Origin: a virus
Lineage: Monodnaviria; Loebvirae; Hofneiviricota; Faserviricetes; Tubulavirales; Inoviridae
Strand: one strand, 5' to 3'
Virus record (IMG/VR): IMGVR_UViG_2734482785_000001
Span: 1 to 7,445 of that record
DNA length: 7,445 nt
Shown: positions 2,179 to 7,026 of the stretch, piece after piece
Layout: the number at the start of each line of letters is the position of its first letter
Position numbering within the stretch: position 1 is the first letter of the stretch
Notes under the pieces: generated by a model
Told to the model about the DNA's origin: nothing
Databases searched by the model: none
What the model saw: the letters and a program-made list of their open reading frames with translations, nothing else
Translations under genes and position numbers: made by a program

Positions 2179-2451
2179 ATGATTAAGATTGAAATTAAAC
2201 CTTCTCAAGCTGTTGTAGATACTCGTAGTGGTGTTTCTAAGAGCACTGGTAAACCATATACGATATCTGAACAGTCTGGTTATATTTTCCTCGGTGGGGA
2301 TTACCCTCAACTATTTAAAATTCCTCTTGAACAAGGCCAGGCTCCATATCCGGCTGGTTTGTATCAGTTGCATCCTTCCAGTATTTTTGTTGGTGACTTT
2401 CAAAAATTACGTATTGGTAAAATTGTTTTAATTTCTATTACAGAAAAGTGA
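2179..2451 (+). CDS. V: Gene V-type ssDNA-binding protein
   Basis: 90-aa product MIKIEIKPSQ...PYPAGLYQLHPSS... is clearly similar to recalled M13 and IKe gene V proteins. ATG at 2179 is preceded by AGGTG (2170-2174). The ORF-track start at 2155 overlaps gII and is rejected. Confidence 0.9.
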   Translation: MIKIEIKPSQAVVDTRSGVSKSTGKPYTISEQSGYIFLGGDYPQLFKIPLEQGQAPYPAGLYQLHPSSIFVGDFQKLRIGKIVLISITEK

Positions 2452-2457
2452 TAAGTT

Positions 2458-2685
2458 ATGGAATCTCATGATAAAGTTATTATTGCCTCTATTTGTGATA
2501 TTAAACCCAGTGGTGACTGTAAGGAAGTCAAGTTAACTTTTTCTGAGATTCCATACCAGCAATTCTCTGATATTGATTATTCAACATTTGCTCAATATTG
2601 GGGGGTTGCTTTTACTTCGGTTGTTGCTTTGTATTTATTTTCACATTGCATCAGCTTGATTATCAAGTTAATACGAAATGCATAA
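2458..2685 (+). CDS. Small protein with C-terminal hydrophobic helix in the gVII/gIX position (possible minor coat protein)
   Basis: 75-aa ORF between gV and gVIII; the C-terminal WGVAFTSVVALYLFSHCISLIIKL is a single predicted TM helix. Ff phages have two roughly 32-aa genes here, so the assignment is uncertain. Confidence 0.4.
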   Translation: MESHDKVIIASICDIKPSGDCKEVKLTFSEIPYQQFSDIDYSTFAQYWGVAFTSVVALYLFSHCISLIIKLIRNA

Positions 2686-2698
2686 ATGGTGGATTTTT

Positions 2699-2929
2699 AT
2701 GAAAAAGATCATTTCATTAGGTTCATTACTGGCAGCTTCATTTTCTATGCCTTCTTTTGCTGCTGAATCAGGTACACCTTCTTCAGGGGTTGATTTGAGT
2801 CAACTTACCAATTCAATTGATTTTGGTTCTGTTCTTACTGGTATTATGGCCGTAGCAGCATCATTAGTTGTACTTTATGCTGGTATTGCTGGCGTTCGTT
2901 GGATTCTTCGTACAGTTAAATCGGCTTAA
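2699..2929 (+). CDS. VIII: Gene VIII-type major coat protein precursor
   Basis: 76-aa product with signal peptide MKKIISLGSLLAASFSMPSFA and likely cleavage after SFA, an acidic/polar N-terminal mature segment, a hydrophobic core GIMAVAASLVVLYAGIAG and a basic C-terminus RWILRTVKSA. Followed immediately by a strong terminator, as in Ff. Confidence 0.85.
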   Translation: MKKIISLGSLLAASFSMPSFAAESGTPSSGVDLSQLTNSIDFGSVLTGIMAVAASLVVLYAGIAGVRWILRTVKSA

Positions 2930-2941
2930 TCTATTAAGGTA

Positions 2942-2965
2942 AGGGGAGTTCCTCCCCTTTTTTTG
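2942..2965 (+). terminator. Rho-independent terminator downstream of gVIII
   Basis: Stem 2942-2948 AGGGGAG pairs with 2952-2958 CTCCCCT, loop TTC, followed by a T-run through about 2964. Confidence 0.8.
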
Positions 2966-3015
2966 GTTATGATTTTAAATTTCTGGTATTTAATGAGTTT
3001 TTTCTGGGGACTTTT

Positions 3016-4488
3016 ATGCGCTTGGGCTGTAATCAAAGGGCTATCGCTTTAACATCTCTTTTTATATTTTTTTTCTCTTTATTAATTCCAGTGCAGAAAG
3101 TTTACTCTAATCCTTTACTTGTAACTAGGGCAGTTCTTCCAACTGTGCTTGGTAGGGTGATTTCATCTAGAGCTCTTCAGGTAACGACTACCGAATCTGC
3201 TTATTCATTAATGGTTCGGAATACATCTACAGCAGTATCTAAAACTGTGTTATCAAAATCGCCATCTATTGCCAGCAAGGGCTTTTTCCGTAGTGCTTCA
3301 GGTGCATTGACATGGGCTGGAGTTGGATATTCCGTTGGGTCTCTTACTGCTGAAAATTTTTCTGATAATGGTCGTTATTTAATTGCCACATCTGGTAAAG
3401 CTTTAGGTAACGGTAAATGGGAGGTTAATTTTGGTGATAAAACGTTTACTGTAGATTTTGAACCAACTTCTGATAATCCTTTTGTCATCAGTGCTGACTC
3501 ACTTAATATGAATAGTTATGATACTGTTGATAAGGTAAGTGCCGGTTATCGTTGGTGGCAATGTACTTATGGTACATCTTGTAAGGGGCCATTTATTGTA
3601 GGTTCTGTTACTGGGGTTGCTCAAGGATATTTTAATTCAGTTGCATCAGGTGGTGGTTTAACTTGCCGGGCACCTGATAAATCTTGTAGCTATAAGTTGA
3701 ATATTTTATCGGTAAATGAAGGACAAGAGGGGGCGGTCTCGGTTGTAAAATATATCTATACTTCTTCTTATTTAAATACAGATGGTGAGTCAATAACTAC
3801 TACTATTACTCCTATTCAGGGTATACAGGTGTATTTTAATAAGGATTTTGATAAGGCTCTAGAGGTTCTTTTTTCTGATTATAAGATGGCAACTGATGAT
3901 GATGGGTTTTCTGTTATGGATGGATTAAAGAAAGTTCCTATGGATTTGGATACTCTTGCTAAGATGATAAATAATTTATTAATGGACGCAGCATCCCAGC
4001 CAGATTATCAGGGAGTCCCTGTATCTTCAACAAATCCTGTAACATCGAATGAAATAAAAGTTGCTTATCCTAATTATGGTTCTTTGACAGAATTTGATTA
4101 TATGTATCCAGCTCAAAATTCACCATCTTCTGATGTGAATATTAGTGTGCCTGGATTTTCTTCTGGTGAATCAGGTGGCGGTTCTGATAATGGTACAAAT
4201 AATCCTGATTTTAGTCATCCAGACGTCCCTGAACCGACGCTAGATACACCACCTTCTGCGGAGGAGATACTTCGTCCAATTAAAGAACTTTTTAATCAGT
4301 ATCGAGATTTAGAAGTACGTCCATCAGGTCTTTCTGCTACATGTCCTGTTGCTAAATTTAATGTGTTTGATAGAGATTACGTTATTGATATGCATTGCGT
4401 ATTTTTGGAGGAATACCGTTCTTTTATTGGTGTCATTTCTTCTTTGATATGGGCTTTAATTTCCTTGCGTATTTTGCTTTCTACGTGA
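3016..4488 (+). CDS. III: Gene III-type minor coat / adsorption protein
   Basis: 490-aa ORF with SD GGGGA 5 nt upstream. N-terminal signal peptide, Cys pairs (WWQCTYGTSCKG, LTCRAPDKSCSY), a Gly/Ser-rich linker (SGESGGGSDNGTNN) and a C-terminal hydrophobic anchor (FIGVISSLIWALISLRILL); position after gVIII. Confidence 0.85.
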   Translation: MRLGCNQRAIALTSLFIFFFSLLIPVQKVYSNPLLVTRAVLPTVLGRVISSRALQVTTTESAYSLMVRNTSTAVSKTVLSKSPSIASKGFFRSASGALTWAGVGYSVGSLTAENFSDNGRYLIATSGKALGNGKWEVNFGDKTFTVDFEPTSDNPFVISADSLNMNSYDTVDKVSAGYRWWQCTYGTSCKGPFIVGSVTGVAQGYFNSVASGGGLTCRAPDKSCSYKLNILSVNEGQEGAVSVVKYIYTSSYLNTDGESITTTITPIQGIQVYFNKDFDKALEVLFSDYKMATDDDGFSVMDGLKKVPMDLDTLAKMINNLLMDAASQPDYQGVPVSSTNPVTSNEIKVAYPNYGSLTEFDYMYPAQNSPSSDVNISVPGFSSGESGGGSDNGTNNPDFSHPDVPEPTLDTPPSAEEILRPIKELFNQYRDLEVRPSGLSATCPVAKFNVFDRDYVIDMHCVFLEEYRSFIGVISSLIWALISLRILLST

Positions 4489-4503: not shown

Positions 4504-4797
4504 ATGGCTTTATTTGGATTGTTATTTAGTATCGTTAATGTTCTTTTAGGTTTTATTTTTAGAACTGTTATCATTAGGTTTGTTTTGTTTTTTGGACTTC
4601 TTTTTGTTGTTCATGAGTTCATTTATGTATTATCTTCATGGATACCATTTAATTTTAACATACCAGCTTTATTTCGAGCTTTACCTGCTCCTATGTGGTA
4701 TTTTTTTGATTTATTTAAGTTCAATGAAGGTTTTCAGTTAATATTTAACGCATATATTACTCGTTTTATTATTCGTAGAATTCCGATTATTGGTTAG
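4504..4797 (+). CDS. VI: Gene VI-type minor coat protein (hydrophobic)
   Basis: 97-aa highly hydrophobic ORF with SD GAGG 7 nt upstream of ATG 4504. Position between gIII and gI and size are comparable to Ff pVI (112 aa). Confidence 0.7.
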   Translation: MALFGLLFSIVNVLLGFIFRTVIIRFVLFFGLLFVVHEFIYVLSSWIPFNFNIPALFRALPAPMWYFFDLFKFNEGFQLIFNAYITRFIIRRIPIIG

Positions 4798-4801
4798 TGT
4801 T

Positions 4802-5839
4802 ATGCCTATTTCTGCTTATGTTGGTTCTTTAGGTAGTGGTAAATCATACGAGGTTGTTTCTAGTGTTATTGTACCTGCTTGTTCTTCTGGGCGTCGTGTT
4901 GTTACTAATATTTACGGTATAAATAAAGATAAAATTCATGCTTATTGCATGAAAAAATCAAAATCGGGGAAAGATATATCCTTAGGTGATGTTATTTATG
5001 TTTCTAATGATGATATCAAAGCTGATGATTTTTTCCCATATAAAGATTCTCGTCCTGAAGATACATTTTGTCAGTATGGAGATTTGATTGTTATTGATGA
5101 ATCCTGGCGCATTTGGGATAGTGACAAATCCATTTGTGAGAATCATCGTTCATTTATTGCAGAGCATCGTCATTTTACTAATATTGAAACTGGTGTTTGT
5201 TGTGACCTTGTTGTTATAAATCAGGAGGTTTCTTCTTTACCTCGTTTTATTAAAGCAAGGTTAGACACTACTTTTAGAATGCAAAAGCATATTGCTATTG
5301 GCATGAAGAGTCGTTATCGTGTCGATGTTTTTAATGGTTCTAAACTTTATAAGTCAAACAAGATTACAAGTTATCAGAGGAAATATAATCCAGATATATT
5401 TCCTTTGTATAAATCATATGAGAATGGGGATGGCAAAGAACTTACTGTTGATAATCGGGCTAGCATTTTAGGCAAGAAAAGTTTGTATTTTGTTGTTCTT
5501 GCTATGATTCTCATTTTCATATTTAGCATTGGTTATCTTTATAGGTTTTTTAATGGTGGTTTGGTCAAGAGTGATGCTTCTGACTTGCCGCCTCAGGACT
5601 CTAATTTCCGTTCTGTTAATTTTAATTCAGTTCCTGAAATTCCAAATACACCTAAATTATCTTCAACTTGGCGTATCGTTGGAAAACTTGAAAGAGAAGG
5701 GCGTAGTTATGTGATAATTACAAATAATTCAGGTCTTGTCCGTATGGTTCCTGCTTCTACCTTTAATTATCAAGGTGTTTTACTTACAGGAATTGTTGAT
5801 GGTGAGCTTGTTACTTTTTATTCAGGTGGTGACAAATGA
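4802..5839 (+). CDS. I: Gene I-type assembly ATPase (Zot-family P-loop NTPase)
   Basis: Walker A GSLGSGKS about 10 residues from the N-terminus (cf. M13 GKLGSGKT), Walker B LIVIDESW, and an internal TM segment LYFVVLAMILIFIFSIGYLY. ATG 4802 is preferred over the ORF-track TTG at 4790, which overlaps the gVI stop. Stop overlaps the gIV start (ATGA at 5836-5839). Confidence 0.9.
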   Translation: MPISAYVGSLGSGKSYEVVSSVIVPACSSGRRVVTNIYGINKDKIHAYCMKKSKSGKDISLGDVIYVSNDDIKADDFFPYKDSRPEDTFCQYGDLIVIDESWRIWDSDKSICENHRSFIAEHRHFTNIETGVCCDLVVINQEVSSLPRFIKARLDTTFRMQKHIAIGMKSRYRVDVFNGSKLYKSNKITSYQRKYNPDIFPLYKSYENGDGKELTVDNRASILGKKSLYFVVLAMILIFIFSIGYLYRFFNGGLVKSDASDLPPQDSNFRSVNFNSVPEIPNTPKLSSTWRIVGKLEREGRSYVIITNNSGLVRMVPASTFNYQGVLLTGIVDGELVTFYSGGDK

Positions 5840-7026
5840 AACGTTTAATATCTCTGTTCTTGATGTTTTTTAGTTTTTCTTGTTTTTCTGCTACTGAGCT
5901 TGAAATAAAAAAACTTGCTTTACCTGAGGCTATTTCTTTGATTTATTCAGAGGTCTTTAAGGTTCCTTATATGATTTCTCCTGATTTAGCCAATGACCAA
6001 CGCCTTGTTTCATTTAAAATAACCAAGGATGTTAATGAGCGTGATTTTATTGAACGTTATTTTTCTAATATGAACATTAAAATTCATACAAAAAAAGGTG
6101 TTGACTACATAACGCCTTTTAAACCTCAAGAAAAAAAAACCATTTTAAAGGTTTTTGTGTATTCTCCATTAAATCGTTCAGTTGGTTATTTGTCTGATAT
6201 TCTCTCTGGTTTTGTATCTGGTCAATTTGGAAATTCAGGAAATATAAGCACTAACATATCCAGTACTTCTTCTTCAGGGGCTTCTAATAATTTCAATAGG
6301 TTAGGTGATTCTCTTGTGTATTATGGCACACAAAAAGATATTGACATTATCAAGAGCATATTGCCAACCATTGATACGGTTCCTGATGAGGTTGTTGTTT
6401 CAGGATATGTTTTTGAGGTTCAGACTGGTCAGAATGATGGCTCAGGATTTTTACTTGCTGCTAAAGTTATATCTGAAAAATTTAATATTTCTCTTGGCTC
6501 TAACATTAGTACTTCTGGTGATTTTTTGAGTTTAAAAACAGGTTCAATTGATGCAATTTATACATTACTTTCAACTGATAACAGATTTTCTGTTGTATCT
6601 TCGCCAAGATTGCGCGTGAAGAATAATACAGAGGCTTCTTTTTCTGTAGGTGCCGATGTTCCTGTTTTAGGTAGTGTTACAGTTAATGGTAATAATTCAA
6701 CCCAGTCTGTTGAGTATCGTAGCTCAGGGGTTTTGTTTAGAGTGAAACCATCTATTAAAATCAACGCTATTGATTTGAACATTCAACAGCAGCTTTCTAA
6801 TTTTGTTGCAACTGATACTGGCGTTAATAATTCTCCGACGCTTTTAAAGCGAGATGTGACAACAGACGTTGTTATGAATGATGGTGATATTATTTTGATA
6901 GGAGGCCTTGCAGAGCAGAAGGATTCTAAATCTTCGTCTGGTTGGTCTATTTTTGGCTCACGTTCATCAGAAAATTCTAAGACAGATATTGTTGTGATGC
7001 TTCAGGTTCGCAAAGTACCAAGATGA
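5836..7026 (+). CDS. IV: Gene IV-type secretin (outer-membrane export channel)
   Basis: 396-aa ORF with SD AGGTGG upstream and an N-terminal signal peptide. Recalled pIV-like segments: VSGYVFEVQTGQ (cf. IEGLIFEVQQG), SSPRLRVKNN...VGADVPV (cf. SVPRILTLSG...VGQNVPF), DGDIILIGGL (cf. DGQTLLLGGL), and a C-terminal S-domain-like tail. Confidence 0.9.
   Translation: MKRLISLFLMFFSFSCFSATELEIKKLALPEAISLIYSEVFKVPYMISPDLANDQRLVSFKITKDVNERDFIERYFSNMNIKIHTKKGVDYITPFKPQEKKTILKVFVYSPLNRSVGYLSDILSGFVSGQFGNSGNISTNISSTSSSGASNNFNRLGDSLVYYGTQKDIDIIKSILPTIDTVPDEVVVSGYVFEVQTGQNDGSGFLLAAKVISEKFNISLGSNISTSGDFLSLKTGSIDAIYTLLSTDNRFSVVSSPRLRVKNNTEASFSVGADVPVLGSVTVNGNNSTQSVEYRSSGVLFRVKPSIKINAIDLNIQQQLSNFVATDTGVNNSPTLLKRDVTTDVVMNDGDIILIGGLAEQKDSKSSSGWSIFGSRSSENSKTDIVVMLQVRKVPR

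Follow-up and report, generated by a model that had tools for sequence, protein, structure and literature searches.

Two conserved small membrane-protein genes as candidate counterparts of Ff pVII and pIX in an Escherichia coli inovirus prophage

Which proteins could cap the leading, first-extruded end of a filamentous phage that carries no recognizable genes VII and IX? In M13, If1, IKe and I2-2, in keeping with the Ff paradigm cited in a preliminary description of this locus, these two genes of 29-33 codons sit between gene V (gV) and gene VIII (gVIII). In f1, five pVII helices form the core bundle and pIX alternates with pVIII in layer 1, neither protein having a signal sequence and both consisting of a single helix with a basic C terminus directed toward the DNA (PMC10175506). 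According to a 2023 preprint, many integrative inoviruses have no recognizable pVII or pIX, and how their assembly starts is unknown (10.1101/2023.12.30.573655). The leading-end cap and packaging-signal recognition of non-Ff filamentous phages are an acknowledged gap, for which the DNA analyzed here offers two conserved candidates: a 75-aa open reading frame (ORF75) between gV and gVIII, and a microprotein gene (ORF27) behind gVIII.

The window, by which we mean the whole 7,445-nt stretch, is a complete inovirus module from an E. coli dif-region prophage, with the features described here from gV onward on the plus strand. Its replication genes include gII, within an ORF at 978-2165 (Pfam G2P_X_C, E=2.9e-24), and end with gV, which encodes the ssDNA-binding protein (2179..2451; Pfam Phage_DNA_bind, E=1.1e-24). 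ORF75 follows at 2458..2685, its ATG positioned 6 nt past the gV stop and its end separated from the gVIII ATG (2699) by a 13-nt spacer that contains the gVIII Shine-Dalgarno sequence, GGTGG. gVIII itself (2699..2929) encodes the major coat protein with its signal peptide, as assigned by phrog_2186 (E=1.9e-24), Phage_Coat_B (E=1.7e-4) and the PGAP call "major capsid protein" in L001, a prophage of E. coli 300709 that is 87% identical to the window. Directly 3' of gVIII, the promoter and terminator scan reveals an intrinsic-terminator-like hairpin with a T-run (2941..2967; 8-bp stem at 2941-2959), the loop and stem of which show a compensatory change in L001; in Ff and IKe, too, a terminator follows gene VIII. 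Beyond it lie ORF27 (2969..3052; MILNFWYLMSFFWGLLCAWAVIKGLSL), an unannotated gene for a single-helix microprotein recognized by its codon changes and conservation, and then the genes for a gene III-like (gIII) adsorption/termination protein of 490 aa with a signal peptide and a C-terminal anchor (3016..4488; phrog_3942, E=2.5e-82), gVI (4504-4797; DUF2523), gI (4802-5839; Zot) and the gIV secretin (5836-7026; Pfam and PHROG matches). Neither the Pfam and PHROG matches nor the ORF list identify a further small membrane-protein gene in 4504..7026, and an Rfam scan of the window gave no match. No deposited phage is close to the window, apart from a 76% match of If1 to gII and its upstream region. 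The identical ORF75 protein occurs in at least 24 assemblies, and at 4 of the 5 places shown among loci with the exact protein the prophage adjoins hipBA.

That a single 75-aa ORF with a polar N-terminal half and one C-terminal transmembrane (TM) helix fills the gV-gVIII gap, as first described, is borne out by the ORF list, the amino acid composition and AlphaFold2 alike. Residues 1-47 (2458..2598) constitute an acidic part of variable length (8 acidic vs. 4 basic residues) with a Cys pair, C13 and C21, of which C13 is nearly invariant within the family. Residues 48-75 (2599..2682) comprise an uncharged hydrophobic stretch (48-69) followed by the basic tail KLIRNA. The N terminus (MESHDKVIIASICD...), being polar and acidic, lacks a hydrophobic h-region and hence a cleavable signal peptide of the kind found in the major coat protein, where the gVIII product starts with MKKIISLGSLLAASFSMPSFA/AE. 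Modeled by AlphaFold2 from a 19-sequence alignment, ORF75 features one continuous helix over residues 41-74 (pLDDT 87-95), preceded by a low-confidence β-hairpin (6-12/22-28; pLDDT 56-60) with Cys13 and Cys21 flanking the turn; this N-terminal part is presumably periplasmic or virion-exposed. A fold search of the model against the PDB and BFVD returned nothing at E<=0.001. Matches of the N-terminal half to giant proteins correspond to the first strands of Big_12 Ig-like repeats and are too short for a domain, and we rejected such an assignment.

Several lines of evidence speak to ORF75 as a gene. It matches phrog_3679, hereafter the orfX family, with E=5.8e-16 (residues 2-75 against positions 2-88 of an 88-position profile); the relatives L003, P0014 and P0020 match that family as well, and PGAP calls the same 75-aa CDS in L001. 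A word-indexed protein search yielded two close relatives only; an exhaustive phmmer search of 1.84 billion representatives returned 16 small relatives of 65-114 aa at E<=1e-3. With either the ORF75 or the ORF27 peptide, tblastn against deposited phages matched saliva inoviruses only and no characterized phage, and a scan of genome contigs with alignment A6 gave no matches. Substitutions relative to L001 are distributed 4/3/9 over the codon positions of the ORF75 frame, and variability by codon position among 29 diverged versions is 13.2/7.3/17.3. The ATG is not preceded by an obvious Shine-Dalgarno sequence and lies 6 nt past the gV stop, so translation is probably coupled to that of gV. Judged by its family, synteny and codon statistics, which together rule out a chance ORF, ORF75 is a real gene.

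The weakest alternative, that the gVII and gIX equivalents are the short hydrophobic ORFs in the other frames of 2458-2698 (2468-2536, 2573-2659 and 2598-2702) and ORF75 is spurious or secondary, draws on the presence of these ORFs and on two of the three staying open in L001, but is next to untenable, since changes relative to L001 are almost all nonsynonymous in these frames, ORF 2598-2702 acquires a stop there, the two frames are interrupted by stops in 28 and 26 of the 29 diverged ORF75 versions, and in relatives at 56-59% GC they are not hydrophobic. The comparison across relatives that had been suggested at the outset thus finds the 75-aa frame, with its coding-type substitution pattern, conserved and two small overlapping ORFs not, in agreement with the earlier view that the short hydrophobic frames exist by chance.

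Is ORF75 then an enlarged pVII or pIX? Neither ORF75 nor ORF27 matches the pVII family (Inovirus_G7P_2 in Pfam, phrog_7781) or the pIX family (phrog_10143 in PHROGs), in searches where M13 pVII matches at 1.3e-21 and 4.6e-20 and M13 pIX at 3e-26 (PHROG). In hhalign comparisons against pVII and pIX alignments built from M13, If1, IKe, I2-2 and L002, the latter a further E. coli dif-region prophage, the orfX family scores 0.5% against pVII and 4.7% against pIX, and the tiny-ORF family represented by ORF27 scores 0.5-1.1% and 2.4-7.4%, respectively. An hmmsearch against all PDB chains, the f1/M13 tip structures included, recovered only a chance WGVAFS motif in WD40 repeats. Homology to Ff pVII and pIX is therefore rejected by Pfam, PHROGs, hmmsearch and hhalign, and none of the other ORFs in the window is detectable as a pVII or pIX homolog either. 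As the preliminary description had suspected, the tip proteins of this phage do depart from the Ff paradigm, because no ORF in the window has detectable homology to the proteins that define it. In more general terms, a pVII-like gene would be expected to encode a signal-less, single-helix protein of ~33 aa and to stand right after gV: ORF75 agrees in all respects except its 75 aa, and ORF27 agrees in size and helix, but its gene stands after gVIII.

Comparison with related genomes places both genes in a common context. We defined a structural block as an orfX homolog directly 5' of gVIII together with, after gVIII, an ORF of 24-30 aa that carries the motif F-x-W-G-[LAI]-L-C-[AG]-W-A and overlaps or abuts gIII, a definition to which the window conforms with ORF75 upstream of gVIII and with FFWGLLCAWA in ORF27. 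Among IMG/VR contigs the order orfX, gVIII, tiny ORF, gIII is found in all 10 of 10 orfX loci. A motif scan detects the ORF27-type gene in 57 IMG/VR contigs (33-63% GC), always after the coat gene, with a long gIII-like ORF identifiable in 54 of the 57 and overlapped, abutted or closely preceded by the tiny ORF. A confident orfX stands directly upstream of gVIII in 44 of these 57 loci, and the remaining 13 have a weak orfX profile match only, one of them being cut off at its 5' end. Synteny of orfX extends over more than 50 diverged inoviruses (33-63% GC), and its place directly 5' of the coat gene is likewise kept in five saliva inoviruses with a gI of no more than 42-47% identity. Across these 57 contigs, the saliva inoviruses and the Pseudomonas phages PMBT54 and 36-2, the arrangement, read from gene order, represents the standard layout for a large clade of inoviruses. 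This revises the first impression of the locus in two ways: the arrangement is not an oddity of one phage, and, while a single conserved gene does occupy the gV-gVIII interval, a second small gene is found at 2969-3052.

The two genes further belong to the structural module. Over positions 1051-2464 the window is 94% identical to L002, the two prophages sharing gII and gV; past 2464 L002 is unrelated and carries a 33-aa pVII-like and a 52-aa pIX-like ORF where the window has ORF75. This swap right after gV assigns orfX and the microprotein to the structural rather than the replication part of the genome. The orfX and tiny-ORF profiles match nine clade genomes and none of L002, M13, If1, IKe and I2-2, and in the genomes sampled the pair is thus, as far as profile matches can tell, mutually exclusive with Ff-type gVII and gIX. 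Not all relatives have two small genes only: L003 and L006 feature two extra small hydrophobic ORFs between gV and orfX, and L020 and L021 one between the tiny ORF and gIII.

ORF27, which lies outside the interval described at first, overlaps the first 37 nt of gIII, is skipped by gene callers in 5 of 5 loci, and has no Pfam or PHROG family. Relative to L001 it has seven synonymous and two nonsynonymous codon changes, as compared to 1/8 and 3/6 in the other two frames, and homologs of 24-28 aa are present in every relative examined. The gIII Shine-Dalgarno sequence (GGGGA) and ATG are embedded in its W-G-L-L-C codons, and the overlap with gIII measures 37-73 nt in most loci; both would suit a regulatory upstream ORF that opens or couples the gIII start and encodes a functionless peptide. 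We nevertheless consider such a role very improbable. Over 51 distinct nucleotide versions, variability of the core by codon position is 3.00/1.59/7.61, and at Gly, Ala and Val codons all four third bases occur; amino acids are kept and third positions are free, which points to selection on the peptide itself, beyond that on the embedded gIII initiation signals, and rules out nucleotide conservation for gIII initiation as the cause of the ORF. Furthermore, the peptide is retained where the overlap is not: in L024-L026, PMBT54 and 36-2 its ORF adjoins gIII, and in L034 and L037 a gap lies between the two. By its pattern of codon changes, then, ORF27 is a real gene under protein-level selection.

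A clue to what ORF75 might do comes from its C-terminal part. The last ~41 residues align without gaps to the C terminus of mature gVIII, with SIDFGS...SLVVLY...ILRTVKSA in the coat protein facing DIDYST...SVVALY...IIKLIRNA in ORF75, so that the C-terminal helix and the lumen-facing basic residues of a major coat protein recur in the same register. At the family level, hhalign pairs orfX with the gVIII of its own clade at 48.8% (E=1.8e-4, 43 columns), and with alignments of 38 distinct orfX/gVIII pairs at 65.5% (E=5.8e-5, score 22.1), where columns 23-45 of the one fall on columns 23-45 of the other; controls with reversed and with 30 column-permuted sequence sets remained at or below 1.4% (score <=11.3), and 10 other pairings of small inovirus membrane-protein families gave 0.6-15.6% (score <=16.3). 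Against Ff pVIII the orfX family scored 0.6%. A register test anchored at the C terminus is positive at shift 0 only (+16.6 vs. -11 to -33 elsewhere). The tails of orfX and gVIII also resemble each other more within a genome than across genomes (27.5 vs. 21.6; permutation p=1e-4, at shift 0 only), in a test that ignores phylogeny and gives p~0.04 within low-GC genomes alone. Phage_Coat_B and phrog_2186 match neither ORF75 nor any of 24 family members, even at E<=10, and pairwise BLASTP of ORF75 against gVIII reaches only E=0.096, so that the likeness, as read from these alignments, may reflect either coat-gene duplication or convergence. Either way, we describe ORF75 as a look-alike of the coat protein that bears an N-terminal extension, in preference to a fused or enlarged gVII/gIX.

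In light of these results we propose, as the best-supported reading, though one with about even odds, that ORF75 and ORF27 encode the pair of minor virion proteins by which the leading, first-extruded end is capped, as counterparts though not homologs of pVII and pIX. From gene context and from the coat likeness described above we infer that the two proteins are in the virion, that they sit at the tip and which role falls to each. Both proteins would enter the inner membrane unaided by a signal peptide, N-out and C-in, a topology predicted for ORF75 from its acidic N-terminal part and basic tail, and at the gI/gIV export machine they would start assembly, on the packaging end of the ssDNA. Because its hydrophobic and basic residues follow the same register as those of the coat protein, the C-terminal helix of ORF75 could take up a coat-like place in the lattice of layer 1, comparable to the alternation of pIX with pVIII in f1, with the basic tail presented to the DNA and the Cys-pair hairpin closing or decorating the tip. 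The microprotein of 24-28 aa, nearly all of it one hydrophobic helix with a G-x-x-C small-residue face, would in turn form a pVII-like central bundle. Low copy number could be set by expression, through the probable coupling of ORF75 to gV and the position of ORF27 behind the gVIII terminator, in overlap with the gene for gIII, a five-copy tip protein.

The conservation of both genes, their place in the structural block, the module swap, the mutual exclusion with Ff-type genes in our sample, the coat mimicry, the co-variation of the tails and the long helix predicted for ORF75 all favor the cap proposal. In addition, the conserved small membrane-protein genes identified besides gVIII, gIII and gVI number just two, as in the Ff cap, and the lack of a signal peptide, the single helix and the basic C terminus are features in common with f1 pVII and pIX. 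Other observations weigh against it. The extra small hydrophobic ORFs of L003, L006, L020 and L021 could be the real cap proteins, and with them the count of two fails in some relatives; the near-C-terminal basic residue of the tiny protein varies, with Q in 18, K in 8, R in 8 and S in 5 of 51 versions, a poor fit to DNA contact; the location of ORF27 beside gIII would equally suit the gIII/gVI end; a small protein encoded beside gV in Pf phages, PfsE, serves superinfection exclusion and not virion structure; no homology to pVII or pIX is detectable; and the co-variation is weak within low-GC genomes.

The third of these points is part of a broader alternative, in which ORF75 is a minor coat paralog built into the shaft or into the gIII/gVI end, and ORF27 works together with gIII and gVI where the particle terminates. 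A coat-like C-terminal helix could pack anywhere in the lattice, and ORF27 not only overlaps gIII but belongs to the gIII-gVI-gI-gIV transcription unit behind the terminator. Such an arrangement would, however, leave a phage with a complete gI/gIV export system devoid of any leading-cap candidate, and it sits uneasily with the position and probable gV coupling of the ORF75 gene, which mirror gVII in Ff, as well as with the mutual exclusion between the pair and Ff pVII/pIX in our sample. We regard it as rather improbable.

The alternative that best withstands the data, unlikely as we hold it to be, is that ORF75 stays in the inner membrane and is never built into the virion, acting either as an assembly chaperone or initiator that docks the coat protein at gI or as a PfsE-like exclusion or host factor. 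PfsE (PA0721) sets a precedent for it: it is a very small hydrophobic protein, its gene just after gV, yet it is a nonstructural superinfection-exclusion factor that varies with the replication module (PMC7549136) and shares no similarity with ORF75 or ORF27. The N-terminal part of orfX, variable in sequence and in length (65-114 aa and more), would also befit a host-facing or fast-evolving function, and our literature search found no virion proteomics or structure for any member of the clade. On the other hand, the exact-register mimicry of the coat tail and its genome-specific co-variation suggest that ORF75 packs with the coat protein or in its manner; the gene goes along with the structural module rather than the replication module, as seen in the L002 swap and, for its Pf equivalent, in Pf prophages (PMC7549136); and its place directly 5' of gVIII is preserved throughout the orfX loci and, with confident or weak matches, the tiny-ORF loci.

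More tentatively, and with greater doubt, the proposal might extend to a large inovirus clade of ~33-63% GC, cultured Pseudomonas phages and possibly Pf1 and Pf4 included, in which the leading end would be capped by two proteins that have no sequence relationship to pVII/pIX: a coat-derived or coat-mimicking protein that has a disulfide-bonded N-terminal hairpin and co-evolves with the coat, and a 24-28-aa microprotein missed by annotation. Such a system would provide numerous integrative filamentous phages with their missing pVII and pIX, and would hint at coat-gene duplication as a source of cap proteins. The microprotein is new to annotation, being absent from gene calls, PHROGs and Pfam, and the presence of both genes in cultured phages (PMBT54, 36-2) as well as in E. 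coli prophages makes the proposal amenable to experiment. Coat-tail mimicry, in turn, offers a testable rule for how a cap protein is fitted into a coat lattice, with relevance for phage display outside Ff and for the annotation of inoviruses in metagenomes.

Among known systems, the closest parallels are found in Pseudomonas phages. ORF6 of PMBT54 and its 36-2 equivalent match the orfX profile (E=1.4e-7 and 1.6e-6) and share with ORF75 a length of 74-75 aa, the Cys pair, the TM helix, a coat-like basic tail and a gene directly 5' of the coat gene, with an unannotated ORF of 24 aa that ends where gIII begins; they differ in belonging to another PHROG family, phrog_4800, listed as of unknown function. 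Annotation of this protein is inconsistent, "ssDNA binding protein" in PMBT54 and "tail virion protein gp7-like" in 36-2, and the PMBT54 paper discusses neither ORF6 nor the tiny ORF. A more distant parallel is Pf1 orf 83, equivalent to Pf4 PA0722 (phrog_1147), an 83-aa protein with a Cys pair (C10, C23), one TM helix and a tail, SLLRKAK, that mirrors the coat tail SMLRKA, its gene again directly 5' of that for the coat protein, coaB. Conversely, it has no significant orfX profile match (E=0.055 in a two-sequence search) and was not matched in the orfX profile scan of genomes. PA0722, annotated as a hypothetical protein, varies along with the structural genes in Pf prophages (PMC7549136). A candidate tiny ORF in Pf1 (1073-1150) lies before the terminator and is identical in sequence among Pf phages. 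All three PHROG families found at the position before the coat gene, 3679, 4800 and 1147, are labeled "unknown function."

Compared with the pVIII of its own clade (phrog_2186, Xf/Pf-type), ORF75 aligns without gaps over the last ~23-43 residues to the C terminus, has the same D-[YF] motif 35 residues from the end and basic residues at -6 and -3, and its tail tends to vary together with that of the coat protein across genomes; unlike pVIII, it lacks a signal peptide and a Pfam Phage_Coat_B match, and its N-terminal part is different and features the Cys pair. Compared with Ff pVII and pIX, finally, ORF75 holds the same slot, after gV and before gVIII, and is likewise signal-less, with a single hydrophobic helix, an acidic N terminus and a basic C terminus, and in both systems there are two small proteins per phage. 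The differences are that ORF75, extended at the N terminus by 47 residues that include a Cys pair, has 75 aa as opposed to 32-33 aa; that the second gene stands here after gVIII and its terminator, overlapping gIII, and not beside the first; and that the two sets of proteins share neither sequence nor profile similarity.

At the sequence level, the junction between gV and ORF75, the 75-aa membrane protein gene at 2458-2685 (+), is a sharp recombination boundary. The stretch spanning gII and gV (1051-2464) is 94% identical to positions 7001-8414 of L002, a second prophage from the dif region of E. coli. The genes for structure and morphogenesis in L002 are unrelated to those of the window, and Ff-style ORFs of 33 and 52 aa precede its coat gene. 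Both L002 and L001, an E. coli prophage 87% identical to the window, appear to be tandem repeats, with the same protein accessions found at either end of each (5909-6804 and 14510-15405 in L002; 1-1551 and 7269-8881 in L001); tandem repetition is a known feature of dif-integrated filamentous prophages.

At the left end of the window, positions 6-32 (GGTACGCATAATGTAGTATGCGTTATG) resemble a partial dif-type XerC/D site, 3' of which lies a GC-rich hairpin (~40-75). The encompassing piece of ~95 nt (4-99), single-copy within the window, has ~420 matches, 88-97% identical, on plasmids of E. coli, far more than are seen for the phage genes. Upstream of gII, where inoviruses usually carry a repressor or regulator gene, two minus-strand ORFs are found: one of 133 aa (108-509) with no family match and one of 102 aa (597-905) matching phrog_2503 (E=5e-25). 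The gII region itself (535-2101) shares 76% DNA identity with If1 (5045-8368). The If1 ORFs concerned are still annotated as hypothetical and carry 1990s-era notes such as 'homologous to eryA' and 'R-pyocin'; the annotation of the If1 replication gene looks outdated.

Within ORF75, residues 18-43 (2509-2586) show local similarity to a 2113-aa RTX-type adhesin, in which the matched segment comprises the initial beta-strands of its bacterial Ig-like (Big_12) repeats; the match recurs in about nine of these repeats, with BLASTP E-values down to 2e-4. It is too short for the segment to be assigned as a Big_12 domain, and the strand likeness is consistent with the beta-hairpin predicted for ORF75.

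Some relatives that carry the ORF75 family, orfX, contain additional small hydrophobic ORFs, located either between gV and orfX (27 and ~24 aa; L003 5528-5819 and L006 6615-6808) or, as a 32-aa TM ORF, between the gene for the 24-28-aa microprotein and gIII (L020 5278-5376 and L021 5513-5611). The products of these ORFs could be additional components of the virion or act in exclusion, and their presence makes it harder to hold strictly to two cap proteins, the number proposed with ORF75 and ORF27.

The comparison extends to cultured Pseudomonas phages. PMBT54 (2132-2356) and 36-2 (3499-3726) each have an orfX-like gene, annotated differently in the two: as 'tail virion protein gp7-like' in 36-2 and, probably wrongly, as 'ssDNA binding protein' in PMBT54. 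Both also feature an unannotated 24-aa ORF that ends at the gIII start (2660-2734 and 4037-4111, respectively). In Pf1, a candidate 25-aa GTG ORF (VLWSVWLGAFFAGAFITGYRTGEFF; 1073-1150) lies inside an annotated 'intergenic region' and is 100% identical in Pf4-like and PfAC04 sequences, leaving no variation from which to gauge coding selection. Pf1 orf 83 (557-808), in turn, displays the orfX design of a Cys pair, a TM helix and a coat-like tail, SLLRKAK, to be compared with SMLRKA in the Pf1 coat protein.
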